This document shows, one piece after another, positions 1 through 11,972 of a stretch of 11,972 nucleotides of DNA. This DNA comes from a virus (lineage: Duplodnaviria > Heunggongvirae > Uroviricota > Caudoviricetes): positions 1 to 11,972 of IMG/VR virus record IMGVR_UViG_2713896773_000004, one strand, 5' to 3'. The notes under the pieces were generated by a model. The model was not told the origin of the DNA. It did not search any database and saw nothing but the letters and a program-made list of their open reading frames with translations. Every line of letters starts with the position of its first letter. Position 1 is the first letter of the stretch. A program made the translations under genes and the position numbers.

Positions 1-29
1 TTTGAATAACTGAATAAGGTAATAAAACA

Positions 30-494
30 ATGACTCAACATATTGGCGTGAAGCTCATCAATGCTTACCCGATGACCCGTCTGGCATATAACGACTTTCG
101 TGGTTGGGAGTTACCAAGTGACGAAAACGGAAGTGATGAAGGTTATCTCGTCGAGTATCTGGATGGCGGAAAGCCAAACACCGATCGCTTCAACGGGTAT
201 GTGAGCTGGAGTCCGAAAGATGTGTTCGACAAAGCCTACCGACCAGTGGCGGGGCTTAGCTTCGGACTGGCTGTCGAAGCCCTGAAATCAGGCAAGCGTG
301 TCACCCGCGCAGGCTGGAACGGCAAGGGCCTGTGGCTTGAGCTGGTCCAGCAGTCGCCATCTGTGGACCTGCCGTACATTCGTTTAATTTATCCTGTGCC
401 GGGCAATGGTGCTATGCCATACCCAAATGGCGCTCGCGTGCCTTGGGCACCAAGCCAAACCGACGTCTTGGCTGATGACTGGCAAATTCTCTAA
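30..494 (+). CDS. Two-domain phage accessory protein; C-terminal DUF2829-like (Tad2-like) domain, N-terminal uncharacterised domain
   Basis: 154-aa ORF with ATG at 30 downstream of AAGG. C-terminal half has the motif series FGLAVEALKSGKRVTRAGWNGKG ... VPWAPSQTDVLADDWQIL, which I recognise from memory as the DUF2829 pattern (FGEAL.ALK.GK.V.R.GWNGK ... PW..SQ.D.LA.DW). N-terminal half (GYLVEYLDG ... YVSWSPKDVFDKAY) looks like a separate domain. No search was run. Confidence 0.55.
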   Translation: MTQHIGVKLINAYPMTRLAYNDFRGWELPSDENGSDEGYLVEYLDGGKPNTDRFNGYVSWSPKDVFDKAYRPVAGLSFGLAVEALKSGKRVTRAGWNGKGLWLELVQQSPSVDLPYIRLIYPVPGNGAMPYPNGARVPWAPSQTDVLADDWQIL

Positions 495-517
495 ACCAGT
501 TGCTTGGGGGGTGGTCT

Positions 518-727
518 ATGCGAGATGACGATTTTCACCATGTGGGCGATGGCCGCGGTAAGCGCCGAGTGTTCGTTAACGGCAACGAGGTCAAGCGCTG
601 CGTATGGGCGGATGTTAAGCGAGGAATAGCATGCTTCTACCCATACCCCATTCGGGTCCATAAGCGAAAGCGCGATGAAGTCTATACCCGCAAACTGCGC
701 GGCGTAATAACCGTCGAATTTATCTAA
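518..727 (+). CDS. Small basic hypothetical phage protein (about 69 aa)
   Basis: ORF in the track as 500..727 (TTG start). I prefer the in-frame ATG at 518, which follows a G-rich Shine-Dalgarno-like run GGGGGGTGG (505-513). Lys/Arg-rich (KRKRDEVYTRKLRG). No family recognised. Followed directly by a terminator. Confidence 0.45.
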   Translation: MRDDDFHHVGDGRGKRRVFVNGNEVKRCVWADVKRGIACFYPYPIRVHKRKRDEVYTRKLRGVITVEFI

Positions 728-728
728 C

Positions 729-753
729 AGGCTGCCTTCGGGTGGCCTTTTTT
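729..753 (+). terminator. Rho-independent terminator (UUCG tetraloop hairpin plus T6)
   Basis: AGGCUGCC-UUCG-GGUGGCCU forms an 8-bp stem with two G-U wobbles, followed by TTTTTT, immediately after the stop at 725-727. Confidence 0.6.
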
Positions 754-834
754 ATGCCTGCCGCTGAGCGGATGCGACGCGGTGACCGGGTCGGATGACC
801 TATTACCAATGGCCGGAAGGCTGGAGCAAAAACA

Positions 835-1587
835 ATGAAACTGAAACTTGATGCTAACGGAAATGTGGTCGTTGAAAACGGTATGCCTGTGTACATCCAT
901 GATGATGGCAAAGAAATCCCGTTCGACGCAGCCGCAGCGATGACCAAAATCACCTCCCTGAATGGTGAAGCTAAAACTCACCGTGAAGCGAAGGAGGCGG
1001 CGGAAGCCAGTCTCGCGAAATTCTCTGGCATCACCGATCCGACCAAGGCGCTCGAAGCCCTGGAGATGATGACCAAAATCGACCAGAAAAAACTGATCGA
1101 CGCTGGCGCTGTTGACCAGGTTAAGGCTGAGATTACCAAGGTATTCCAGCAGCAGCTGGATGAAGCGAACGGCAAGACCAAACAGCTCGAAAGCCAGCTC
1201 TACGACGAGATGATCGGCGGGCGCTTCGGTGGCTCCAAATTCATTTCAGAGAAGATGGCGATCCCGGCTGAGTTCGTGCGTTCCCACTTCGGTCAGAACT
1301 TCAAAATCGAAGACGGCAAAGTCGTGGCGTACGACGGGCAGGGCAACAAGGTGTTCTCTCGCACCAAGCCAGGCGAGTTAGCCAGCTTTGATGAGGCCCT
1401 GGAGTCTCTGGTCGAGTCGCATCCGCAGAAAGATTACATCCTCAAAGCGTCCGGTAACAGCGGCGGCGGTTCTCACCAGTCGCAGCACCAGGCCGGGCAA
1501 AAAACCATGAAACGCGATGCGTTTGATTCCCTGGATAACGCTGGCAAGCAAGCAGCGCTGAAAGACGGCGTCAGCATCGTCGATTAA
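835..1587 (+). CDS. Putative capsid scaffolding protein
   Basis: 250-aa ORF with AGGCTGGAG upstream. Charged, Ala/Lys/Glu-rich, predicted helical/coiled-coil composition, Gly/Ser/Gln-rich linker near the C-terminus. Sits immediately upstream of the major capsid gene with a 17-nt gap, the usual scaffold position. Confidence 0.55.
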   Translation: MKLKLDANGNVVVENGMPVYIHDDGKEIPFDAAAAMTKITSLNGEAKTHREAKEAAEASLAKFSGITDPTKALEALEMMTKIDQKKLIDAGAVDQVKAEITKVFQQQLDEANGKTKQLESQLYDEMIGGRFGGSKFISEKMAIPAEFVRSHFGQNFKIEDGKVVAYDGQGNKVFSRTKPGELASFDEALESLVESHPQKDYILKASGNSGGGSHQSQHQAGQKTMKRDAFDSLDNAGKQAALKDGVSIVD

Positions 1588-1604
1588 ATCGAAAGGAGCC
1601 ATAA

Positions 1605-2744
1605 ATGGCAGGCAATACCCTTACTGGTCTGATCCCGACCATCTATACCGCGCTGTACGTAGTGTCCCGCGAGCAAACTGGTTTTATTCCTGCGGTGGCG
1701 CGTGACGCGAAAGCGGATGCTGCTGCAAAAGACCAGACCGTACGTGCGCCAGTCGCACCTGCAGCCACCACTGAAGATATTGTCCCTGGACCTTCAGCGC
1801 CTAATTCTGGCGACCAGACCATCGGTGGTGTGGATGTCAAAATCACCAAATCCAAAATGGCCCCGGTGAAATGGAATGGTGAAGAGCAATTGGCTCTGGG
1901 CCCGGCTGGTACCTACAACACCATCCTGGCTGACCAGTTCAAGCAGGCTTTCCGTGCGCTGGCGAACGAAGTGGATGCGGATCTCGCTGCGCTGTACCTC
2001 AACTCCTCCCGCGCTGTTGGCGCGCCAAAGAATACCCCGTTCAGCATCAAAGACGATCTGACTGATGCTGCGTTGGCGCGTCAAATCCTGACCGATAACG
2101 GTGCGCCGACTACTGATTTGCGTATGGTGCTGGGTGGCGAAGCGATGGCATCCATCCGTGGTAAACAGGCTGTACTCTTCAAAGCGAACGAAGCGGGAAC
2201 CGACCAACTGCTGCGTGAAGGTGTTATCGGTCGCATCATGGGCTTCAACCTCCACGAATCCTTCAGCATCAAGCGTACCGCGAAAAGCGCTGCTGCTGGC
2301 TATAAGGTCAATGGCGCGAAGAAAGAGGGCGATATCATCATCGCTATCTCTGCTGGCACCGGCGGTATTGCTGCAGGTACTGCGGTGAAGTTCGCCGGTG
2401 ATGACAATCAGTATCTGGTCGTTGCGGCTACGTCTTCCACTATCACTATTAGCGCGCCGGGCCTCCGTCAGGATCTGGCAGACCAGGCTGATGTCACTGT
2501 GTTGAGCGAATTTGTACCGAACATGGCGTTTGACCGCGGGGCATTCCTGCTGGCCAGCCGTACCCCGGCGATGCCTGAAGGTGGCGATACTGCTGATGAC
2601 GTCATGAATGTGACCGACCCGGTATCTGGCATCACCTTCCAGGTGGCGCTGTACCGCCAGTACCGTCAGGTGCGTTATGAAGTGGGCCTGGCATGGGGTG
2701 TGGCTGCTGTGGCGCCACGTCATTCCGCCATCATCATGGGTTAA
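1605..2744 (+). CDS. Major capsid (coat) protein, P22 coat-like by motif resemblance
   Basis: 379-aa ORF with strong RBS AAGGAG about 8 nt upstream. Position after the scaffold gene and before connector genes. Segments GDIIIAISAGTGGIAAGTAVKFAGDDNQYLVV and the C-terminal GLAWGVAAVAPRHSAI resemble motifs I recall from P22 gp5-type coat proteins. Followed by a hairpin terminator/attenuator, typical of highly expressed capsid genes. Confidence 0.65.
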   Translation: MAGNTLTGLIPTIYTALYVVSREQTGFIPAVARDAKADAAAKDQTVRAPVAPAATTEDIVPGPSAPNSGDQTIGGVDVKITKSKMAPVKWNGEEQLALGPAGTYNTILADQFKQAFRALANEVDADLAALYLNSSRAVGAPKNTPFSIKDDLTDAALARQILTDNGAPTTDLRMVLGGEAMASIRGKQAVLFKANEAGTDQLLREGVIGRIMGFNLHESFSIKRTAKSAAAGYKVNGAKKEGDIIIAISAGTGGIAAGTAVKFAGDDNQYLVVAATSSTITISAPGLRQDLADQADVTVLSEFVPNMAFDRGAFLLASRTPAMPEGGDTADDVMNVTDPVSGITFQVALYRQYRQVRYEVGLAWGVAAVAPRHSAIIMG

Positions 2745-2748
2745 CCCA

Positions 2749-2770
2749 GGGGGCTTCGGCCCCTTTGTTT
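2749..2770 (+). terminator. Rho-independent terminator/attenuator after the capsid gene
   Basis: GGGGC-UUCG-GCCCC hairpin (2750-2763) followed by TTTGTTTT. Located between the capsid stop (2744) and the next RBS (AGGAGG, 2773-2778). Confidence 0.55.
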
Positions 2771-2782
2771 TCAGGAGGCCCA

Positions 2783-2983
2783 ATGGCCGGATTAACCAAA
2801 GAGCAGAGCGCGCAGCGTGAGGCTGAAAAGCTTGCCGCGCAGAACGGCGCTGAACAAACAGGTATTGAGCTGGTGGCTATGATGCGAGATACCCCGGAGT
2901 TCCCCGGCGGTCCGCTGAGCGCTGAGGTTCACCCTGACGAAGTCGATAACTGGCTGGCGCTGGACTGGCGACTGGAGGAGTAA
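2783..2983 (+). CDS. Small hypothetical head-module protein (66 aa)
   Basis: ORF track gives 2693..2983, but that start overlaps the capsid gene and its terminator. The in-frame ATG at 2783 has a consensus AGGAGG RBS 5 nt upstream. Acidic protein, no family recognised. Confidence 0.55.
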   Translation: MAGLTKEQSAQREAEKLAAQNGAEQTGIELVAMMRDTPEFPGGPLSAEVHPDEVDNWLALDWRLEE

Positions 2984-2985
2984 CT

Positions 2986-3297
2986 GTGAGCGATAAAGAT
3001 ATTGAGCAGGAAATTCAGGCCAAAGGCTTGAACGCGCCGCGCGTTACGCTGGGCGAGTTGAAGGCGAATATTAAGCATGCCGAGATCGTGAAGCACGTAT
3101 CCGTCACCGGGCAGGTGCTTCGCTGGGCGGTCATCACCACTCAAAACGGATTCGCAGTAACAGGGAATCCGTCGTGCTCAGTTTCCTCCGCTAACGACAA
3201 CGCTGAAATTGGCGAGAAAATTGCTATTGAGAACGCCGAAAGCGAGTTGTGGGCGTTGATGGGATATGCGTTAAAGCAGAAGCTTTTCGAAGCCTGA
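2986..3297 (+). CDS. Gp49-like small phage protein (PF13876-like pattern), function unknown
   Basis: 103-aa ORF with GTG start at 2986 preceded by GGAGGAG. Pattern TLGELKANI ... VTGQVLRWAVITTQNGFAVTGNPSCSVSSANDNAEIGEKIAIENAESELWALMGYALK matches my memory of the gp49/gp66-type small phage protein family. Not verified by search. Confidence 0.45.
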   Translation: MSDKDIEQEIQAKGLNAPRVTLGELKANIKHAEIVKHVSVTGQVLRWAVITTQNGFAVTGNPSCSVSSANDNAEIGEKIAIENAESELWALMGYALKQKLFEA

Positions 3298-3310
3298 GAG
3301 GAGCTCTGAG

Positions 3311-3793
3311 ATGATTAATGCCGATCCCCATTCGTCTGACTTCAACAGCTATGCCAGCGTTGGTGATCTGCGCGCGTTCGCTGCGGGGCGCGGATACACC
3401 ATCCCTGCTGAAGATGGCGAATGCAGCCAGATGCTGATGCAGGCAATGGACTTTCTGGAAGGGAAGGCCTGGCGCGGTCAGCGTTCCAGCGCATCACAGC
3501 CTCTATCCTGGCCGCGTTCCGGCGTGCGCTTCGATGGTGTTGACCTGTCGAATGATGCGATTCCACAGCGCCTGATTGATGCTCAATGTCGCCTGGCCAT
3601 CGAATCGCAGGAGATTGACCTCACCCCGTCGGTCGCTGGCGGTGGGGCGGTTACGATGGAGCGCGTCGAGGGTGCGGTAACAGTCCAGTATGAGCCGGGA
3701 ACGAATAAAGCTTCTCCGTCATTCCCATGGTTCTATTCCGCACTGCGCGGGCTTGTAGTGGGCGGCAACCAGGTCCGGGTCGAAAGGGGGTAG
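3311..3793 (+). CDS. Putative head-tail connector / adaptor protein
   Basis: 160-aa ORF with GAGGAG RBS. First of four tightly packed small genes between the capsid and major tail genes, the canonical siphovirus connector/neck block. Assignment is by position and size, not by recognised homology. Confidence 0.4.
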   Translation: MINADPHSSDFNSYASVGDLRAFAAGRGYTIPAEDGECSQMLMQAMDFLEGKAWRGQRSSASQPLSWPRSGVRFDGVDLSNDAIPQRLIDAQCRLAIESQEIDLTPSVAGGGAVTMERVEGAVTVQYEPGTNKASPSFPWFYSALRGLVVGGNQVRVERG

Positions 3794-3794
3794 C

Positions 3795-4148
3795 ATGGCA
3801 ATCGACTATCGCCGCATGCGCGCGACCGCGACCCGACTGCTGACCGAGAACGGGAAGGCATATCAGCTTACCCGCGGCGGCGGCACCATCCGTGACCAGT
3901 TCGGCAAAGAGGTCACCACCCCGGCCATTACCGCGACCGTAACCGGTGTTATCACCGAATACTCCTCCCGCGAAATCGACGGTTCCCTGATCGCCACCGG
4001 CGACAAGAAGCTGGCGGCCACTTTCGAGACGGAAGTGCGCATCGATGACCGCATCGAAATCGACAGCAAAAAGTGGCGCGTGGTACAGCCGAATCCGGTT
4101 AAGCCTGCCGATGTGCTGATCTCCTACAACATCCAGCTGAGGGCGTAA
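3795..4148 (+). CDS. Putative head-tail joining / head closure protein
   Basis: 117-aa ORF starting 2 nt after the previous stop (translational coupling), GGGGG upstream. Position and size fit a head-tail joining protein. Confidence 0.4.
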   Translation: MAIDYRRMRATATRLLTENGKAYQLTRGGGTIRDQFGKEVTTPAITATVTGVITEYSSREIDGSLIATGDKKLAATFETEVRIDDRIEIDSKKWRVVQPNPVKPADVLISYNIQLRA

Positions 4149-4150
4149 CT

Positions 4151-4750
4151 ATGGTGGGGTCTGTTAATCAGCCGTTCCTGGCTGCCATTCAGCTGTTCGT
4201 GGATGGCTCGAAGCAGGAGATGGACGAGGTGGTGCGCCGGACGGGTATTAAAATCCTCGCTCAACTGGTTGAGATGTCCCCGGTGGGCCAACCGGATATC
4301 TGGCAGGTCAACCAGACCGCGACGGCGTACAACACTGCGGTGCGGGAGCATAACGCGACCCTGCGTGATGACCCGGCTAATCTGACCAAATCAGGACGAC
4401 TTAAGCGCGGCCTGCGCGTCAACGACTCGATGGACATCAAAAAGCCTGAGGGCTATGTCGGCGGGCGGTTTAAAAACAACTGGTATGTGGGCTTTGACAG
4501 CCAGCCAAGCCAATCCAACGACACCCCCGACGCTTCCGGCCAGGGTTCCAACTCCCGCGGTCTGGCAGTGCTCGAGGTGTTCCGGGTAGGGCAGGTCAGC
4601 TCGATTTTCTTCACCAATAATCTGCCATATGCGGCAGCACTGGAGAACGGGCATTCCGGCCAGGCACCCGGCGGCATGGTGGGCATCACTGCGCTGGATG
4701 CCGCGCAGTTGTTCCGTGAGGCAATGAGCGAGGTGCGCAATGGCCAGTGA
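4151..4750 (+). CDS. Putative tail completion / neck protein (HK97 gp10-like position)
   Basis: 199-aa ORF starting 3 nt after the previous stop. Third gene of the connector block. Family assignment by synteny only. Confidence 0.4.
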   Translation: MVGSVNQPFLAAIQLFVDGSKQEMDEVVRRTGIKILAQLVEMSPVGQPDIWQVNQTATAYNTAVREHNATLRDDPANLTKSGRLKRGLRVNDSMDIKKPEGYVGGRFKNNWYVGFDSQPSQSNDTPDASGQGSNSRGLAVLEVFRVGQVSSIFFTNNLPYAAALENGHSGQAPGGMVGITALDAAQLFREAMSEVRNGQ

Positions 4751-5189
4751 CCAGTCAATGCGAATTGCTGAACTACTGGAGAGCCGCATTGCGGTTATCT
4801 GCTTATCGCTTGGGCTGCCCGTAGCCTGGCCGAACATACCGTTTACTCCCCCGGATAGCTCACCATACGGGCGTGTTTATGTTCTGCCGGCACAGACGGT
4901 GGGGCAAGACCTGGAAGGTCAATTGCGAACCTATCAGGGCATCCTGCAGCTCAACATCATTGCGCCAGCAGGCAGCGGCGTGACGCAGGCCAGAGGGCTG
5001 GCTAAATCTGTCGCTGATGCATTTCCTGAAGGGCTTGCGCTGGTGGATGGTGACCTGACTGTTTATATCAATGGGCCGCCGCAGGTGAGACAACCCATCC
5101 AGGACCGGCCAACCTCGGCGTCCAACGGGTCCAGTGGCTCCATAACCTACACCATTCCCGTCAGCATGCAGTACCGCGCTGACTACTGA
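4740..5189 (+). CDS. Putative tail terminator protein (gpU-like position)
   Basis: 149-aa ORF whose ATG (4740) overlaps the previous gene by 11 nt (ATGGCCAGTGA). Last small gene before the major tail gene, the position of the tail terminator in lambda-like clusters. Followed by a terminator. Confidence 0.45.
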   Translation: MASDQSMRIAELLESRIAVICLSLGLPVAWPNIPFTPPDSSPYGRVYVLPAQTVGQDLEGQLRTYQGILQLNIIAPAGSGVTQARGLAKSVADAFPEGLALVDGDLTVYINGPPQVRQPIQDRPTSASNGSSGSITYTIPVSMQYRADY

Positions 5190-5212
5190 CCCGCCAGATG
5201 GCGGGTTTTTTA
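5190..5212 (+). terminator. Rho-independent terminator
   Basis: CCCGCC-AGAU-GGCGGG perfect 6-bp hairpin (5190-5205) followed by TTTTTTATT, immediately after the stop at 5187-5189. Confidence 0.65.
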
Positions 5213-5235
5213 TTACCTAAATTCAGGAGAGTGCT

Positions 5236-6168
5236 ATGGCATTCGCAATCCCTAACGGCTCGCGTGTTAACGTGGCCAAGGCCTATCAGGCTCCCATCAC
5301 CTTTACCGCTGCCTCTAACGCTACTGAATGCGAACTGACTGTTGCATCTGCCGCTGGCATCCTGGCGGGCGACGTAGTGCAGGTGAGCTCCGGCTGGCTA
5401 AAACTCGATAATATGGTGCTGCGCGTTAAATCCGTAGCCGGTACCAAAATCGTGCTGGATTCGTTCGATACCTCTGACACCACCAAATTCCCGGCAGGCA
5501 CTGGCGCGGGCACGCTGCGTAAAATCGACACGTGGATCACGATGCCGCAGGTGATGACCCTCTCCACAGAGGGTGGTGACCAGCAGACCATCAGCGTGCA
5601 GTTCCTTGAAGACGATAAGGCCCGTACCATCCCGACCTTCAAAAACGCCGTGGTGCAGGTCTACACCTTCGCGCACGATCCGCTGCTGGCAATTTACAAG
5701 CGTCTGAGTGAACTTGACGAATCCAGCGACACCACTGCTGTGTGGTTCCATAACCCGCGCGGCAAAGCGGACCGTTATTACTCTGCCAAAGTGTCTTTCC
5801 AGAAGGTGCCTAAGACCGAAATCAACGCCGTGGAAAGCAACGAAGCGCGCATGAACTTCGAATCGGATATGCAGATTTACCCGATCGCCGATTCATCCGT
5901 TACGCCGCTGGCGTTCCTGACTGATCTGCCATCAACCAAAGCAGTTAGTGTTGGAGATGCGCTCGATTTAGCCGTCGTTATGCAAGGCGGCTCAGCCCCT
6001 TACACCTACGTGTGGAAGAAAGGAAGCTCCGCAATTCCGGGCAAAACCGCCTCGACGTTCAACATTTCGTCTGTCTCATCCGGTGATGCTGGCGTTTATA
6101 CCTGCGAAGTCACTGACGCCGCAGGCAAGACCCTAACGTCGGCGGCATGCACCGTTACTGTCAGCTAA
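5236..6168 (+). CDS. Major tail (tube) protein with C-terminal Ig-like domain
   Basis: 310-aa ORF with RBS CAGGAGAG. Sits between the tail terminator and the G/GT chaperone, as lambda V does. C-terminal roughly 80 aa (AVSVGDALDLAVVMQGGSAPYTYVWKKGSS ... SGDAGVYTCEVTDAAGKTLTSAACTVTVS) has the Y-x-C and W hallmarks of an Ig-like domain of the kind appended to many phage tail tube and capsid proteins. Confidence 0.7.
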   Translation: MAFAIPNGSRVNVAKAYQAPITFTAASNATECELTVASAAGILAGDVVQVSSGWLKLDNMVLRVKSVAGTKIVLDSFDTSDTTKFPAGTGAGTLRKIDTWITMPQVMTLSTEGGDQQTISVQFLEDDKARTIPTFKNAVVQVYTFAHDPLLAIYKRLSELDESSDTTAVWFHNPRGKADRYYSAKVSFQKVPKTEINAVESNEARMNFESDMQIYPIADSSVTPLAFLTDLPSTKAVSVGDALDLAVVMQGGSAPYTYVWKKGSSAIPGKTASTFNISSVSSGDAGVYTCEVTDAAGKTLTSAACTVTVS

Positions 6169-6175
6169 CCAATCA

Positions 6176-6200
6176 GGCCCGGTTCGCCGGGCTTTATTTC
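6176..6200 (+). terminator. Rho-independent terminator after the major tail gene
   Basis: GCCCGG-UUCG-CCGGGC hairpin (6177-6192) followed by TTTATTTC. Confidence 0.6.
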
Positions 6201-6384
6201 GCAATGAGTACCGCTGGCGAATTTTCTGTATTCGCATTACCCATCTTTTCAAACTGCGCCTTCACACGCGCTCTCTAACCAAGAACCTTTCAGAAAGCGT
6301 TCCTGAGAACTGCCGTTAGTGCCGGTGGGCCTCTTGGGGCGGCTTTTCTGTGTGAACAGGTTCGCTTTTTAAAAGGTACACACC

Positions 6385-6915
6385 ATGAATCACCCAACCG
6401 TCTCAGTGAATGGGGTCTCCGTCCGCGTTGATGACGAAGGCCGGTACAGTCTTAACGATCTTCATGCGGCAGCGGTAGCTAACGGAGAGGCTACTGAGTC
6501 ACAAAGGCCCAGCGTCTTCCTGCGTAGCGCGCAGATCAAACGCTTCGTTAAAGCGCTAAAATCCAAAGCACTAAAAAGTGCTTCGGAACAAAATCAACCA
6601 CTTAAGGTTATAAAAGGCGGTGATCAAAGTGGTGCATGGGGCATTGAACTTCTGGCAATCCGCTATGCCGCCTGGATAAAGCCAGAGTTTGAGATTGAAG
6701 TGTACGAAGTATTTAGAACAGTGGTGCGTCTTGGTATCAGTGCCATGTCCCGCCTGAACAAAATCGACCACATCATCAACACTGAAACCAAGGCAATTAG
6801 CCAGTGTGCCAGCCAAATGGCCAAGTGGGGTGTTGGTGGTCGCAAGCAGCTATTACATGCAGCCCGGGATCGCGTCGCCGACGAAGTCCAGATGTATCTG
6901 CCCGGCATTAACTAA
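6385..6915 (+). CDS. KilA-N domain protein (moron)
   Basis: 176-aa ORF with AAAAGG upstream. N-terminus VSVNGVSVRVDDEGRYSLNDLHAAA ... SVFLRSAQIKRFVKAL ... GAWGIELLAIRYAAWIKPEFEIEVYEVF matches the KilA-N pattern I recall (V..G..IRV...GRYSLNDLH.A ... F.R ... W..P.F). C-terminal roughly 70 aa unrecognised. Lies in a 786-bp gap between the major tail gene and chaperone G, with terminators on both sides. Confidence 0.6.
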   Translation: MNHPTVSVNGVSVRVDDEGRYSLNDLHAAAVANGEATESQRPSVFLRSAQIKRFVKALKSKALKSASEQNQPLKVIKGGDQSGAWGIELLAIRYAAWIKPEFEIEVYEVFRTVVRLGISAMSRLNKIDHIINTETKAISQCASQMAKWGVGGRKQLLHAARDRVADEVQMYLPGIN

Positions 6916-6916
6916 T

Positions 6917-6941
6917 ACCCGCTACGGCGGGTTTCGTTTTT
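6917..6941 (+). terminator. Rho-independent terminator after the KilA-N gene
   Basis: ACCCGC-UACG-GCGGGU hairpin (6917-6932) followed by TTCGTTTTTCT. Stop codon at 6913-6915. Confidence 0.6.
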
Positions 6942-6954
6942 CTAAGGAACCGAA

Positions 6955-7293
6955 ATGACCAAATTCTCCCTGATCCCGAACCCGACCTTCTCCGTTACCG
7001 CCAGCATCCCGCGCGCTGGTGCTGAAGACGGCAAGCTGACCTTTACCTTCCGCCACAAGACACTGGAAGAGCTGCGCTCTATGGATGAAAAGCTGCAAAA
7101 GTCGGCTGAAGGTAAAAAGGCTGCTATCGAGCCGCAGGCCGACTACCTCATGGAAATTGTCGAGGGGTGGGCACTACCTGACGAGTTCACCCGCGACAAC
7201 GTTATTGTCCTTCTTCAGAACTACCCGCGCGCGTTCGACAGCATCGGTCTGGCCTACACCAAAGAGCTGATGGGTATCCGCGAAAAAAACTAA
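6955..7293 (+). CDS. Tail assembly chaperone (lambda gpG-like)
   Basis: 112-aa ORF with AAGGAA RBS, immediately upstream of the tape measure gene. Ends with a slippery heptamer A_AAA_AAC immediately 5' of its stop codon, and the -1 frame continues open to the tape measure start. Confidence 0.65.
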   Translation: MTKFSLIPNPTFSVTASIPRAGAEDGKLTFTFRHKTLEELRSMDEKLQKSAEGKKAAIEPQADYLMEIVEGWALPDEFTRDNVIVLLQNYPRAFDSIGLAYTKELMGIREKN

Positions 7294-7598
7294 GGCAGGT
7301 CGCCGCAGCGTTGTACACGCCGGGACCGACTCTCGCGGAGTTAGCCGCTTTTGGTTTGACGCCTGAGGACGTGGAGGAAGAGGTGGGTATCCTGCCCTCT
7401 GTGTGGAAGTCTTTCACCATCTTCTCTGCCCTGGCAACCCAGTGGCGCGTCGGCGCGAGCGGGGCGACCGGCCTTGATTACAACGTTCTCCCCTGGATGT
7501 TCGAGTTACACGGGGTTGAGGATGCGGCGGCCTGCATGGCTGACCTTCAAATTATGGAAAGCGAGGCTCTCAAGGTAATGCATAAGGAGACGAAATAA
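6955..7598 (+). CDS. Tail assembly chaperone frameshift fusion (gpGT-like), made by -1 programmed ribosomal frameshift at 7284-7290
   Basis: 0-frame codons GAA AAA AAC TAA place the heptamer A_AAA_AAC at 7284-7290. After a -1 slip, reading continues CTA AGG CAG ... (LRQVAAALYTPGPTLAEL...) to the TAA at 7596-7598. This is the same frame as track ORF 7311..7598, which has no credible independent start (TTG, no RBS). Predicted fusion is about 214 aa. Confidence 0.6.
7284..7290 (+). other. -1 programmed ribosomal frameshift slippery heptamer A_AAA_AAC
   Basis: AAAAAAC in X_XXY_YYZ register relative to the G reading frame, directly upstream of the G stop codon. Confidence 0.6.
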
Positions 7599-10500
7599 TG
7601 ACAGACCAGATCGCCTCGATTACTTTGCGGGCCGATGTTTCTGACCTGAAAACAGCCAGCAACGAACTGGATAAACTCGGCCAGGCGGCGGCCGGTGCTG
7701 TAGATAAAGCAGATGATCTGAATAGCGTGTTTCGCGCTGGCGCTGAATCTGCGAAGCAAGGCAGCGAAGGACTCAAGGAGCAGCAGAACGCGCTCAAAGG
7801 GCTGCTGGAGAATATCGACCCGGTTACCAAGGCCTTAAACCGCCTGGATGAGCAGCAAGAATCGCTGCGGAAATTCCAGGCCAAAGGTTTCCTGGATACC
7901 GATACCTTTCAGGCATACAACAAAATCCTGGATGACACCCGCCTCAAGCTGACCGACACCGGAGAAGCCGCGGCGCGCGCTCAGGCTGAATTAGCCGCTA
8001 CCCAGGCGGCAGAAAAGCAGTCCGCAGCGTTAAAGAACCTTCTTGGATCCATCGACCCGACTATCCGCGCGTTCAATTCGTTGGATGAACAGCACGCACA
8101 GCTGGTGGAACATTTCGAAGCTGGGCGCATTAACGGTGCTCAGTTCGAGCACTTCAACACAATCCTTAACCAGACGCGTGAGCGCCTCTCTGGTGTCGCT
8201 GACGTACTACCAGAGGCGCTATCCCGGCAGGAAGCTGCTGCCCGGCGCGCTGGAATCTCCGTTGGTCAGTACAGCGCAGCAATGCGCACGCTTCCGGCGC
8301 AATTCACCGATATCGCCACGCAGCTGGCTGGCGGTCAGTCGCCGTTCCTGATTCTGCTGCAACAGGGCGGGCAGATTAAAGACCAGTTCGGCTCGGTTCA
8401 GGGGGCGCTGTCCGGCGTCGGCGAATACATCCGCAGCATGGCTGGGATGATTAACCCTACCACAATCGCACTTGGTGGGCTGATTGGCACGATCGGCCTG
8501 CTGGCTGCCGCAGCGTATAACTCCTCGGAGCAATTTGAGCAGGTGGCACGCTCTGTCATCATGATGGGTGGGGCTGGCTTCTCCTCAATGCAGCAGCTCA
8601 ACCAGGCCGCTGAGGAAGTGGCTGGCAAGACGAATACATCGATTAGCTCCACCGTCGATACGCTGGTTACGTTGAACGATACTGGCAAATATACCGCAAG
8701 CCAGATGAAGCAGGTCGCAACGACCATCACCCTCATGGGTAAGGCCGGAAATGATACCAAAGCGGCAATAAGCGACTTCGGAAAGATTGTCAGCGATCCG
8801 GTTAAAGGGCTTGCCAGCCTCAATGAACAATATGGTTTCGTTGATGAAGCCATGATCAAGCACATTATCCAGCTACGTAAGCAGAAGGGTGAGCAGGCGG
8901 CTGTTACCGAAGCTATTGAGCTGTTTGCAGGCGTCATGGCAAAGCGCGCAGAGGAGACCAACAAAGCGACCGATAATATCGGTCAAACGTGGGAAAACCT
9001 TAAAAAGAGCGCTTCTGACACCTTTGGCGATATAGGTATTACCGTGCGCGCATGGGGAAACCAGATCATTGATATTTTCGAACTGGTTAAATCCTCGATC
9101 AAAGACTTGTTCCTCAATATCACCTCTCTGGACGCCAAGTTCACCAGCACCATCGCTGGCTGGGCAGACAAAATCCCGGGTGGCGGTGCGCTGGCTAATT
9201 TCCTCGGCATGGACGTTGAGGCAATGAAAAAGGCTGGAGCGGAGGCGGACAAAGAGATTGAGGCGAACAAAAAACGCTATAACGAGCTTTGGAAGCGCGT
9301 CACTGCGCCTAACGCACAGGCAAACTATGAGGCTGAAGCGCGAGGGTCTAACGTAAAAGGTGATGGAGGAACAAGTCGAGAATCAAGAGACGCAGTCTCG
9401 AAGCTTGCACAAGACTCAGACAAAAAGACCAAAGAGGCAAAAGCCACGCTGGATGCTGGCGATCGCACCCTGGAGAACTACCGCGCCCAGGCCAGAACGT
9501 TAACTGAAACGCTCGAGACCCTCCGACAAACAGGCGAAACCCACGCTAAAAACACCGAGTTCAGTAAACAGCAATCTCGATTTGCTGAATTGGATGAGGC
9601 AGCCAAAACCCGCGCGTTGACTGCTCAGGAAAAATCTTTACTGTCGAGCCGTGAGGCGATTCTGAACGCCGCCAAGGTGGTTGATCAGAAGAACAAGGAA
9701 GTAGAGGCGCAGCAGAAGATTAACGGCCTGGCGCAGCAGGCGAATAAATACGTCACGCAGATGTCGGAAAAAACCGATGCATTGCGTGATAGTGTAGGCC
9801 TCAGCAGTCGGCAAACGCAGCGCATGATGGAAGAGGCACAGCTTCGCCAGGGCTGGCTCAACGGTGGCGGTAAGCTTGATGATGCTGGCTATGAGAAAGA
9901 ACTGGCAGCCCTCAGAAATTATTACGCTGAAGAGGATAAGCTGCGCGGCGATTGGAAATCAGGTGCTATCAGCGGCTGGAATGAGTATCTGGACGCTGCC
10001 ACCAATACCTACGATGCCGTGAAGAATGTTGCCAGCTCCACGCTAACAGGCCTGAGCGACATGCTGACCGAGCTCATGACGACCGGCAAAGCATCGGTCA
10101 AAGAGTTCGGCAAATCCATGCTCAAGATGATCCTGGATGTGACGAACCGCCTCATGGTGGCCTACGCGGTGCAAGCTGCTATGGGATGGATCAGTGGGAG
10201 CGCGGGAGGTGGCGCTACACCCGGCGGTGCTTATGCCAATGCGGCCGCTGGTGTAACGTTCAATGCTAAAGGCGGCGTATACGAATCACCCGGCCTCAGT
10301 AAATATGTGAATGGCGTCTACGATTCTCCTCAATATTTCACATTCCAGGGCGCGTCGAAGTTTGCCAAAGGCGGGGTATTCGCTGAGGCAGGGGCTGAGG
10401 CGATCATGCCGCTGACGCGGGATTCTGCTGGTCGGCTTGGTGTCAGGGCGCAAGGCGGGGGCGGTGCGCAGCCTCAGGTCAATATTGATATCTACGTTGA

Positions 10501-10651
10501 TAACAAGGGCAACACATCATCAAATACGTCCGGAGACGGCAGTGCTGCGGCGCGTGCCTTAGGCAAGGAAATTGAAGCAAAGGTTACGGAGATCCTCGTG
10601 AGGGCCGCTCGGAGTGATGGTTTCCTGGGCAAAACGTTCCAACCCAAATAA
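7598..10651 (+). CDS. H: Tail tape measure protein (lambda gpH homologue)
   Basis: 1017-aa ORF whose ATG overlaps the upstream stop (TAATG), RBS AAGGAGA. Segment [53 protein letters not shown] is near-identical to the lambda gpH segment I recall ([49 protein letters not shown]). Also has hydrophobic Gly-rich segments and a Gly/Ala-rich C-terminus typical of tape measure proteins. Confidence 0.9.
   Translation: [1017 protein letters not shown]
7790..8188 (+). repeat. Intragenic tandem duplication in the tape measure N-terminal region (two diverged copies of about 54 aa, period 79 aa)
   Basis: Residues 65-118 ([54 protein letters not shown]) and 144-197 ([54 protein letters not shown]) align without gaps at about 44% identity. 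Nucleotide copies are diverged, sharing short strings such as ATCGACCC. Confidence 0.7.
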
Positions 10652-10693
10652 GAAACTGCTGTGATTCTGAGATGGGAATATCATCTGCACCTG

Positions 10694-10722
10694 GTTACAG
10701 CGACACATCCCTTGGTTATCAT
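10694..10722 (+). promoter_or_regulatory. Candidate sigma70 promoter for the first island gene
   Basis: GTTACA (10694-10699), 17-bp spacer, TATCAT (10717-10722). Predicted start about 10729, upstream of RBS AAGGGG (10742-10747). Pattern match only. Confidence 0.3.
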
Positions 10723-10753
10723 GAGCTAAACCATGCTAATCAAGGGGATGATA

Positions 10754-11128
10754 ATGAAGGCGCTCAAAATTGGCCTTGCAGGGATTGTTGTTATTTACTT
10801 GCTCATCAATGCCAGTAAATCACAAGAGATAAAAAGCGAAGATATACCTGCGTTTGCTAAAAGTGAGTCAAATGTATGGATAGCTAATACACTGGGCCAG
10901 CCGGGCGCAGACGTCATCAAAAGCTCTACCTACTACCTTAAGCGTGAGATTCCAGAAGAGGATATTGTTTATGGCTATCTTTGTGGAACCATAACAACTG
11001 GCGAAAGATTCTTTACTGAGGTCTCGATCAATAAGCGCAAGCACACGTCTGGCATTTTCAAAAATATGATATTTGATAAACGCAATGCAAAGACGTTTAA
11101 TCAGATCTGGAACACTGAGTGTAAGTAA
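10754..11128 (+). CDS. Hypothetical secreted or membrane-anchored protein with N-terminal signal peptide (cargo island gene A)
   Basis: Track ORF 10733..11128. I prefer ATG 10754 (or 10748), 6 nt after AAGGGG. N-terminus MKALKIGLAGIVVIYLLINA-SKSQ has a basic n-region, hydrophobic core and Ala at the putative cleavage site, with no lipobox Cys. Mature part has two Cys. Local GC is about 40%. No family recognised. Confidence 0.55.
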   Translation: MKALKIGLAGIVVIYLLINASKSQEIKSEDIPAFAKSESNVWIANTLGQPGADVIKSSTYYLKREIPEEDIVYGYLCGTITTGERFFTEVSINKRKHTSGIFKNMIFDKRNAKTFNQIWNTECK

Positions 11129-11149
11129 CCATCAAGATCACCCAACACA

Positions 11150-11175
11150 GCCTCGCATACGCGGGGCTTTTTTAT
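11150..11175 (+). terminator. Rho-independent terminator after island gene A
   Basis: GCCUCGC-AUAC-GCGGGGC hairpin (one G-U wobble) at 11150-11167, followed by TTTTTTAT. Confidence 0.6.
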
Positions 11176-11203
11176 ATCTGTAGCCGAGAGGCAGGAGAAC
11201 GTT

Positions 11204-11461
11204 ATGGAAATGACTGTAGGATTCCCTGAAATGGGTTCGCGATTTGAATCTGTAAGCTTCGATCCAGATTTAGAAATTAAAATGATAAAGACTGTCAGAA
11301 CCAAAATTACAGTTTGCAAGCTTGAGCAAATCAATGCGCCTCATGAACTGGTGTTTATCTATCAGGAGGATTTCAATCCAGGCAGCTCTTTTGCCGAAGT
11401 CGAAGCACGCGCCAAAGAATATGCCAGTAAGGCAATTGCCGGATTGAAAACCCCGGCTTAA
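11204..11461 (+). CDS. Hypothetical small acidic protein (cargo island gene B, 85 aa)
   Basis: ORF with AGGAGA RBS 6 nt upstream of ATG 11204. AT-rich codon usage unlike the structural genes. Its stop codon lies in the loop of a hairpin that can terminate the convergent minus-strand gene. No family recognised. Confidence 0.5.
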   Translation: MEMTVGFPEMGSRFESVSFDPDLEIKMIKTVRTKITVCKLEQINAPHELVFIYQEDFNPGSSFAEVEARAKEYASKAIAGLKTPA

Positions 11462-11467
11462 CCGGGG
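11447..11467 (-). terminator. Candidate rho-independent terminator for minus-strand gene C
   Basis: Plus-strand CCCCGG-CTTAA-CCGGGG (11451-11467). On the minus strand the hairpin is followed by UUUU (complement of AAAA 11447-11450), 8 nt downstream of the gene C stop. The U-tract is short, so strength is uncertain. Confidence 0.4.
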
Positions 11468-11474
11468 CAAAGCA

Positions 11475-11705
11475 TTATTTGATGCGATGGTAGATGTTAT
11501 CAGCCCTGGCGTACAATTTGGATACCGCCTCGGCACGACCTTGCTCTTGCATCGTCATTTTTGATGTATCTCCACCGTAGGCCTTCGTCATATACTCAGT
11601 AACGCGCTTGCGAAAAGCTCCAGCATCACCTGATTCGACAGTGGCAACAGCTAATAAAAACGCTAAGGCTTCATCCTGCTGGTCTTCTTTGTTAAAGCTC
11701 ATCAT
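11475..11705 (-). CDS. Hypothetical small protein encoded antisense to the late operon (cargo island gene C, 76 aa)
   Basis: Minus-strand ORF starting ATGATG (complement of 11700-11705) with AGGAG 3 nt upstream (complement of CTCCT 11709-11713). Protein MMSFNKEDQQDEALAFLLAVATVESGDAG..., no family recognised. It is the only credible minus-strand gene in the window. Confidence 0.55.
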   Translation of the reverse strand: MMSFNKEDQQDEALAFLLAVATVESGDAGAFRKRVTEYMTKAYGGDTSKMTMQEQGRAEAVSKLYARADNIYHRIK

Positions 11706-11753
11706 AAACTCCTGTTATACCGAGGCCATCAGCCGCACCGTCGGCAATTAATG

Positions 11754-11774
11754 CGCCAGTGCCCACCACTGGCG
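11754..11774. repeat. Perfect 8-bp inverted repeat with 5-bp spacer upstream of gene C
   Basis: CGCCAGTG-CCCAC-CACTGGCG, located about 50-70 bp upstream of the gene C start codon on the minus strand. Candidate operator or RNA hairpin. Confidence 0.4.
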
Positions 11775-11834
11775 GGCTGAATCCACAACATAACCAGGTA
11801 TTTTGATTTGTAACATCCTGATATTCAGACAGTA

Positions 11835-11857
11835 GCCACCTTCGGGTGGCTTTTTTT
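11835..11857 (+). terminator. Rho-independent terminator (perfect UUCG tetraloop hairpin plus T7) immediately upstream of gene M
   Basis: GCCACC-UUCG-GGUGGC (11835-11850) followed by TTTTTTT (11851-11857). The RBS GGAG and ATG of the next gene follow within 12 nt. Confidence 0.7.
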
Positions 11858-11868
11858 ATGGAGCAAAT

Positions 11869-11972
11869 ATGGCAGTTGAAACATACAGCTGGCGCTCGCA
11901 GCTCGGTGCTGGGGCGATTGAATATAGTCAAACGGTGCGCGCTGCGCAGTTCGGTGATGGCTATGAGCAGGT
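11869..11972 (+). CDS. M: Minor tail protein M (lambda gpM-like), 5' partial, continues beyond the window
   Basis: ATG at 11869 with GGAG 5 nt upstream. Translation MAVETYSWRSQLGAGAIEYSQTVRAAQFGDGYEQ matches the N-terminal pattern of lambda M as I recall it (MKTFRWKVKPGMDVASVPSVRKVRFGDGYSQ), including the FGDGY motif. Truncated by the window end. Confidence 0.7.
   Translation, partial: MAVETYSWRSQLGAGAIEYSQTVRAAQFGDGYEQ

Follow-up and report, generated by a model that had tools for sequence, protein, structure and literature searches.

The DNA analysed here, an 11,972-nt stretch covering positions 1 to 11,972 of IMG/VR virus record IMGVR_UViG_2713896773_000004 (hereafter the window), is the head-tail part of the late operon of a lambdoid siphovirus, an HK639-like prophage, and is punctuated on its coding strand by seven hairpins with U-rich tails, designated T1 to T7. 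These are likely to be genuine Rho-independent terminator hairpins, falling into two classes, in a Q-dependent lambdoid late operon. Gene assignment by PHROG and Pfam searches places a Tad2-like gene and a small gene ahead of the scaffold-like and major capsid protein genes; six small head-completion, connector and neck genes, the major tail (tube) protein gene, a KilA-N domain gene, the tail assembly chaperones G and T and the tape measure protein (TMP) gene follow, and the start of the minor tail gene M closes the window (Table 1). Between the tape measure gene and M lie three genes (orf131, orf85 and orf76) that gave no PHROG or Pfam family match. The nearest sequenced phage is Escherichia phage HK639, with 86% nucleotide identity over 70% of the window. 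Prophages 89-96% identical to the window occur in 12 complete Escherichia coli genomes, and a second IMG/VR contig, UViG_2713896773_000003 (L261), is 100% identical to window positions 1-8352. About 300 related loci were gathered for the comparison of gene junctions, and counts among relatives are given as distinct sequences.

Table 1. Terminator hairpins, promoter-like site and genes of the window; the two terminators listed under contig L261 lie outside it and are given in the coordinates of that contig.
Feature	Position	Strand	Sequence or assignment	dG (kcal/mol)
T1	729-748 (with tail 729-753)	+	AGGCUGCC-UUCG-GGUGGCCU + UUUUUAU	-12.8
T2	2748-2765 (with tail to 2770)	+	AGGGGGC-UUCG-GCCCCUU + UGUUUU	-12.4
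T3	5188-5207 (with tail to 5212)	+	GACCCGCC-AGAU-GGCGGGUU + UUUUAUU	-15.1
T4	6175-6194 (with tail to 6200)	+	AGGCCCGG-UUCG-CCGGGCUU + UAUUUCG	-14.0
T5	6917-6932 (with tail to 6941)	+	ACCCGC-UACG-GCGGGU + UUCGUUUUU	-11.8
T6	11149-11168 (with tail to 11175)	+	AGCCUCGC-AUAC-GCGGGGCU + UUUUUAU	-14.2
T7	11834-11851 (with tail to 11857)	+	AGCCACC-UUCG-GGUGGCU + UUUUUUAU	-12.7
Terminator of orf76	11468-11450 (whole 11441-11468)	-	GCCCCGG-(UUAAG)-CCGGGGU + UUUCAAUCC	-14.2
tR'-like terminators, contig L261	1992-2017 and 2284-2305 (loop UUCG)		Between Q gene and holin gene	
Sigma-70 promoter-like site	10694-10722	+	GTTACA-17-TATCAT, 9/12 matches, upstream of orf131	
Tad2-like gene	30-494	+	PF11195, 72 bits (Thoeris anti-defence 2-like)	
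Small cargo gene	518-727	+		
Scaffold-like gene	835-1587	+		
Major capsid protein gene	1605-2744	+		
Six small head-completion, connector and neck genes	2783-5189	+		
Major tail (tube) protein gene	5236-6168	+	C-terminal Ig-like domain	
KilA-N domain gene	6385-6915	+	PF04383, 56 bits; cargo in tube-chaperone slot	
Tail assembly chaperones G and T	6955-7293 and 7311-7598	+		
Tape measure protein gene	7598-10651	+		
orf131	10733-11128	+	No family match, GC 0.40, cargo	
orf85	11204-11461	+	No family assignment	
orf76	11475-11705	-	Reverse gene	
Minor tail gene M, start	from 11869 (ATG at 11869)	+		

The predicted folds of T1-T7 have the anatomy of intrinsic terminators. Their stems comprise 6-8 bp with 5-6 G-C pairs, all loops are 4 nt long, and folding energies range from -11.8 to -15.1 kcal/mol. 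Unbroken runs of six U follow T1, T3 and T6, and the longest run, of seven, follows T7. The initial annotation of this DNA, made from the sequence alone, had located all seven sites correctly, and its coordinates for the AGAU (5196-5199) and AUAC (11157-11160) loops of T3 and T6, both unrelated to the UNCG class, are exact. Nevertheless, it counted five UUCG loops where there are four (T1, T2, T4 and T7), since the loop at 6923-6926 in T5 reads UACG, still a UNCG loop; it took the hairpin before gene M for the strongest, although T3 and T6 are the most stable and T7 excels only in the length of its U run; and its list lacked the minus-strand terminator at 11468-11450, the eighth of the window. 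The canonical C(UUCG)G arrangement of loop and closing pair is found at T1, T2 and T7 only, which are exact members of the extra-stable tetraloop class, whereas T4 has G(UUCG)C and T5 has C(UACG)G. Hairpins of the C(UUCG)G type are said to have been described as extra-stable by Tuerk and colleagues in 1988, and d'Aubenton Carafa and colleagues reportedly found them, in 1990, to be over-represented among E. coli terminators.

The number and placement of these sites depart strongly from expectation. A strict scan (tetraloop, stem ≥6 bp with ≥5 G-C pairs, ≥5 T in 8) returned seven sites on the plus strand, against 0.08 ± 0.29 per strand in 1000 dinucleotide shuffles (maximum 2), and a single weak site on the minus strand; a generic, looser scan gave 19 weak sites against 12.1 expected. 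All seven hairpins fall on the coding strand and within the 882 non-coding bases, which make up 7.4% of the window, and seven of the eight intergenic gaps of at least 38 nt contain a terminator hairpin, the only long gap without one being occupied by the promoter-like site upstream of orf131. T1 to T5 follow stop codons closely, with distances from stop to stem of 1, 3, -2, 6 and 1 nt, respectively, whereas T6 begins 20 nt past the orf131 stop and T7 lies 128 nt from any plus-strand stop. An Rfam E-value search of the whole window gave no match at the hairpins, its sole match being a fluoride riboswitch at chance level (E = 0.76), and folding of the spacer between T4 and the KilA-N gene (6300-6375) revealed no unusual structure (z = -0.19).

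Comparison with relatives separates the hairpins into two classes. The first, to which T1, T5, T6, T7 and the minus-strand site are assigned from sequence, comprises terminators of cargo, or moron, units. The clearest case is the junction before gene M, where relatives were aligned on the start of M, since the C-terminus of the tape measure protein was too variable as an anchor (12 other loci only). A hairpin with a T-rich tail precedes M in 51 of 52 distinct relatives, but the stems are of at least six unrelated kinds, all of them fused to the same UUUUUAUGGAG ribosome-binding region, as T7 is fused to the ribosome-binding site (RBS) of M in the window. Unrelated stems at the same spot argue for selection on the presence of a terminator and not on a particular sequence, and this turnover is the strongest sign in our analysis that termination itself is selected. 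The region between the tape measure gene and M holds one to several different genes in relatives (slots of 1050-2449 nt). In loci L006-L009 the T6 hairpin directly abuts M, and these loci have no counterpart of the cassette that occupies 11204-11705 in the window, where orf85 on the plus strand and orf76 on the minus strand form a pair like genes 22/23 of phage HK97. From this comparison, the 22/23-like cassette, together with its own T7, is placed as an insertion between T6 and M. The minus-strand terminator of orf76 overlaps the stop codon of orf85 on the opposite strand.

The slot between the tube and chaperone genes behaves similarly. It is empty (41-65 nt) in 29 loci and carries cargo in 25, with at least 12 different slot lengths (324-1413 nt). 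A T5-type hairpin with a T-rich tail stands at the right end of the slot in all 20 distinct cargo-bearing slots and in none of the empty ones, and in the same 20 slots the T4 hairpin stands at the left end, with a good T tract in most cargo-bearing relatives. In the window, the right-hand hairpin is placed between the KilA-N gene and chaperone gene G, 22 nt before the latter. Since T5 occurs only with cargo and T4 is always present, T5 travels with the cargo and T4 belongs to the backbone. The initial proposal that some of the terminators delimit cargo is thus borne out.

T1, located 86 nt before the scaffold gene, also marks the end of a variable region. The hairpin and a tail with 7 T in 8 are kept in 45 of 49 distinct relatives; the upstream flank takes at least three unrelated forms, and the sequence is constant from the T tract onward. 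Thus, T1 closes a variable cargo slot, which lies between the minor head and scaffold genes and holds the Tad2-like gene and the small gene in the window. The exact Tad2-like protein occurs in 2031 indexed blocks of the assembly collection and is therefore very widespread. A further cargo slot is marked by the prophage of E. coli CX21, which carries a reverse helix-turn-helix gene (2583-3323, minus strand) between the scaffold and capsid genes; in the window this junction measures 17 nt and has no hairpin.

Morons are defined, in the words of Juhala et al. (2000) quoted in PMC3594210, as units with their own promoter and terminator. Insertion between genes that are adjacent in relatives applies to the tube-chaperone slot and to the 22/23-like cassette, and a 3' terminator of their own is found for the KilA-N gene (T5), orf131 (T6), the cassette (T7) and orf76 (the minus-strand hairpin). 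Concerning promoters, orf131 is preceded by the site listed in Table 1, and an 8/12 promoter-like site lies upstream of orf76. Base composition sets apart orf131, orf85 and orf76, with GC contents of 0.40-0.46 (0.42-0.46 for orf85 and orf76) versus 0.54-0.60 in the backbone, whereas the KilA-N gene (0.51) is marginally below the backbone and the Tad2-like gene (0.54) is no different from it.

The second class comprises T2, T3 and T4, which sequence comparison assigns to the backbone around the capsid and tail-tube genes, where they are present with or without cargo. T2, past the major capsid gene, has a tail (UUUGUUUU) that continues into the RBS of the next gene; it is kept in 30 of 31 distinct relatives, with a UUCG loop in 24 of these 30. 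T3 and the stop codon of the tail-terminator gene overlap in all variants, and the hairpin lies 28 nt upstream of the tube gene. Its stem and tail are kept in 49 of 50 distinct relatives, with 21 different loops. T4, past the tube gene, combines an inner stem (GCCCGG/CCGGGC) that is invariant in all 28 distinct relatives with a tail that is weak in the window and contains 2 to 8 T among relatives, the tract ranging from none up to U8. In the 16 loci with an empty 41-nt tube-chaperone slot the stem is kept and the T tract is missing altogether, and in the 13 loci with a slot of 64-65 nt the tract is weak.

Sequence diversity around the hairpins was compared with that at third codon positions of the genes flanking each of them. 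At T3, these positions show a diversity of 0.34, against 0.04-0.07 in the stem arms, 0.56 in the loop and 0.03 in the T tract; the corresponding values are 0.17, 0.07-0.19, 0.16 and 0.00 at T1, and 0.24, 0.00-0.09, 0.03 and 0.06 at T2. The constraint on stems and T tracts equals that on first and second codon positions, except in the 3' arm of T1, which varies about as much as synonymous sites, a pattern indicative of purifying selection on stems and T tracts. The loop sequence itself is conserved at T2 only, as UUCG. UNCG loops dominate at T1, T2, T4, T5 and T7 across relatives, but beyond T2 the loops UUCG, UCCG, UACG, UAAG and UCAG interchange, and the 21 loops of T3 are unrelated; the UUCG motif is therefore a preference and not a requirement. 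A mutational hotspot in the T3 loop was considered and rejected, as its diversity (0.48-0.64) stays inside the upper part of the third-position distribution (mean 0.34, 95th percentile 0.65) and fits neutrality. As for pairing, 98.4% of cells are paired at T3, where a single compensatory pair (G-C to A-U) was found.

Most of these hairpins have counterparts in well-known phages. In HK639 (GenBank HM208537; King et al., 2011, J Bacteriol 193:5784, cited in PMC9378689), whose head-tail module is orthologous to the window, the annotated 'terminator' features at 4901-4922, 9019-9040, 10003-10029 and 10850-10873 are the equivalents of T1, T3, T4 and T5, and the sequence also contains equivalents of T2 and T6 that are not annotated. 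The loops differ from those of the window (UACG in the HK639 T4, for example), the cargo between T4 and T5 is a 226-aa gene of no known function instead of the KilA-N gene, and the 22/23-like cassette before M is missing. The search for more distant relatives with the tail-tube protein (tblastn against phage genomes) gave HK639 at 92% identity and next matches below 41% over the tube domain; the latter belong to virulent T1-like/Webervirus-type phages, which were set aside as too distant, and too different in regulation, to be informative.

The same terminator layout is found in HK97 (GenBank AF069529; Juhala et al., 2000, J Mol Biol 299:27, cited in PMC3594210), where the annotated putative terminators stand downstream of the portal and capsid genes, on both sides of the major tail gene, and behind every moron, although the HK97 capsid, neck and tube N-terminal domains have no detectable relation to those of the window. 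HK97 positions 14452-15145, with genes 22/23, are 90.3% identical to the window region 11181-11873. The HK97 record lists these genes as 'moron product' and 'reverse moron product' and places one putative terminator on either strand, of which 15107-15129 is the equivalent of T7 and the 'terminator, putative' of gene 23 that of the minus-strand site at 11468-11450; the cassette stands before J in HK97 and before M in the window. The annotated post-tube terminator hairpin of HK97 (7443-7462) has no T tract, like T4 of the empty-slot relatives, and its post-capsid hairpin has a GAAA loop. A 22-nt block of T3 (ACCCGCCAGATGGCGGGTTTT; window 5190-5211) is identical at HK97 6693-6714, between genes 11 and 12, including the AGAT loop that varies freely within the window's own family. 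Of the proteins encoded on either side, the upstream pair is unrelated (BLASTP), and the tube proteins have just their C-terminal Ig-like domain in common (50% identity). The identical block suggests that the two phages have a mosaic joint in common or that an intergenic cassette was recently exchanged.

In lambda, hairpin/T sites are found between D and E, after E and on both sides of J. The one at 7163-7180, 3 nt past capsid gene E, has a C(UUCG)G loop and the tail UGUUUC and closely resembles T2, but the tube gene V has no hairpins around it (gaps of 7 and 15 nt). Hairpins thus recur around the capsid and tube genes in the window family and in HK97, and around the capsid gene only in lambda. 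Lambda and the window family share a further arrangement, in which a Q-family gene and a short leader ending in strong terminators precede the lysis, head and tail genes on one strand, although the Q protein encoded in contig L261 belongs to PF03589 (269 aa), a family different from that of lambda Q.

The Q gene itself is located outside the window, 8.4 kb upstream, in contig L261, where positions 1061-1870 encode this 269-aa PF03589 'Antitermination protein Q' (118.7 bits; cut-off 26.7). Downstream of it, on the same strand, are two strong terminators (Table 1), a P21-type holin gene, a lysozyme gene, a C(UUCG)G terminator (3524-3547), and the terminase and head genes. By eye only, a weak candidate for a promoter (TTGCAT-17-TAGATT, 1913-1941) was recognised, and no qut or pause element was identified after the Q gene in L261. 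Among the eight prophage relatives compared over 10 kb of upstream DNA, six have a Q-family gene (PF03589 or PF06323) at the same place, and in HK639 four annotated terminators stand between an annotated Q antitermination gene and the lysis genes. Within the window, sigma-70-like sites are scarce (2 versus 7.4 expected), so that the structural genes most likely depend on transcription from upstream. Lambdoid late operons are activated by Q antitermination (PMC2629481), and the classification of this operon as a Q-type late operon is supported by the Q gene of the identical contig and of the relatives, that is, by genomic context and not by the window itself. The initial annotation had stated that late transcription must be antiterminated in a Q-like manner; the Q gene upstream agrees with such antitermination, but the necessity is not compelled, given that T1-T5 lie so close to stop codons.

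These data point to the following model. Each of T1, T5, T6, T7 and the minus-strand site would close an add-on unit, namely the Tad2-like gene with the small gene, the KilA-N gene, orf131, and the HK97 22/23-like pair. In the repressed prophage, the cargo terminators would stop transcription begun in or before the cargo from entering the structural genes, and in the lysogen the terminators would, more generally, halt transcription from cargo or stray promoters. During lytic growth, by analogy with established Q biology, the Q-modified polymerase from the late promoter would read through all terminators, while ribosomes that terminate within -2 to +6 nt of T1-T5 would probably shield these hairpins as well. 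Part of the read-through at T1-T5 could accordingly be due to ribosomes, and Q would not be the only possible route.

Several observations weigh against this interpretation. In E. coli, the terminator tR2 placed 8-9 bp past a translated gene is 'almost fully repressed', and its maximum efficiency of ~0.9 is reached only at >30 bp (PMC4824070). T5 lies 1 nt past the KilA-N stop, within the range where translation reportedly represses a terminator, and its presumed insulating role for translated KilA-N mRNA is thereby weakened. The U tracts are interrupted at T2 (UUUGUUUU), T4 (UUUAUUUCG) and T5 (UUUCGUUUUU), and 16 of 54 loci, like HK97, have the T4 hairpin but no T tract, so that termination cannot be the sole conserved role of T4. 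Covariation is weak at T3, where 10 of 500 shuffles reach the observed score, and not above shuffles at T1, where 127 of 500 do and changes proceed via G.U intermediates only; the structural case therefore rests on conservation, placement and turnover. Finally, a relaxed scan (at least 8/12 matches) found no sigma-70-like site upstream of the KilA-N gene, and orf85 leaves no room for a promoter after T6, so that the moron label is incomplete for these two genes.

The most probable alternative is compatible with the terminator model and concerns the backbone class. Protection against 3' exonucleases by hairpins is an established principle in bacterial operons, and T2 and T4, possibly also T3, may act after transcription in this manner, their stem-loops blocking 3'-5' exonucleases so that the capsid and tube mRNA outlives the rest and protein ratios are set; we regard this as possible but tentative. 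The genes that these hairpins flank are precisely those of the two most abundant proteins of the virion. The invariance of the T4 stem in relatives whose T tract is absent or weak, together with the HK97 post-tube hairpin devoid of a T tract, would be expected of such a role, as would the make-up of T2, whose stem is short, whose tail is poor and whose extra-stable UUCG loop is conserved (diversity 0.03); the matching C(UUCG)G hairpin after lambda gene E provides a parallel. Furthermore, a Q-modified polymerase would ignore terminators, and termination could then not tune late ratios. The proposal of the initial annotation that termination tunes mRNA stoichiometry fits poorly for other reasons as well, because T3, which folds most stably of all seven and has a strong U run, stands directly before the tube gene, whose product is required in larger amounts than any other tail protein, and because the many relatives with a T4 hairpin but no T tract point to mRNA stability instead. 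Nevertheless, T3 lies upstream of the tube gene and would stabilise the low-copy neck-gene segment, its U6 tract is perfectly conserved, as for a true terminator, and T4 has a good T tract in most cargo-bearing relatives. Somewhat more doubtful is a stricter version, in which T2, T3 and T4 would together form a conserved device, independent of termination, that divides the late mRNA into parts differing in stability; the placement of the hairpins next to stop codons would hide them from the polymerase when the upstream gene is translated, and ratios would be set after transcription. This version draws on the lack of a T tract at T4 in about 30% of relatives and in HK97, and on the conserved UUCG loop at T2.

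It is also conceivable, although unlikely, that lytic read-through of T1-T5 is achieved mainly by translation and not by Q, the terminating ribosome covering the 5' arm and blocking its folding, in which case the terminators would fire only on untranslated or uncoupled, spurious transcripts. The short stop-to-stem distances, the overlap of T3 with a stop codon in all its variants, and the repression of tR2 at 8-9 bp from a translated stop codon (PMC4824070) are all consistent with this possibility. However, tight spacing may merely reflect genome compaction, T6 and T7 (20 and 128 nt) are out of ribosome cover and still need to be bypassed, and the same logic would disable T5 for translated KilA-N mRNA. 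The presence of a Q gene and of tR'-like terminators, Q being the established mechanism in this phage group, also favours Q-mediated read-through.

A third alternative, that the hairpins are chiefly recombination joints at which microhomology in palindromes and T tracts swaps cargo and modules, terminator activity being incidental, seems improbable. Cargo slots do start and end exactly at T4 and T5 and at the T tract before M; upstream flanks vary at T1 up to a constant T tract; and the 22-nt T3 block is identical in HK97, loop included, between proteins that are unrelated or only partly related. Yet the stems at the M junction, of at least six types, differ and so cannot be the shared homology, and this explanation leaves unaccounted for both the restriction of the T tract to the coding strand and the 7 to 1 strand bias, while joint movement of terminators and cargo is already a prediction of the moron model. 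That the hairpins are chance palindromes without function, for which only the small excess in the generic scan could be invoked, is ruled out for practical purposes by the shuffles of the strict scan, the exclusively intergenic, coding-strand placement, the conservation over ~50 distinct relatives per site and the annotation of such sites in HK639 and HK97.

Apart from the hairpins, the chaperone region contains a candidate programmed frameshift site, a run of seven A (slippery A AAA AAC) at 7283-7293, right before the stop of chaperone G. The open reading frame that follows (7311-7598) is open in the -1 frame, which fits the frameshift expected for a G-T fusion chaperone.

As orthologues or analogues of annotated terminators in HK639 and HK97, the features described here are already known, and the frame in which they are interpreted, with Q read-through, moron terminators and terminator loops of the UUCG type, is standard. 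Their import beyond annotation is therefore small, and consists of a map of transcription punctuation for a widespread family of HK639-like prophages, which marks the slots where anti-defence and other add-on genes (Tad2-like, KilA-N and the HK97 22/23-like pair) are exchanged. Slots with and without cargo offer a natural comparison, in which the 3' terminator moves with the cargo and the post-tube hairpin stays with the backbone. If the backbone hairpins indeed act on mRNA stability, a principle known in bacterial operons, they would add a post-transcriptional layer to the setting of structural protein ratios in lambdoid phages.

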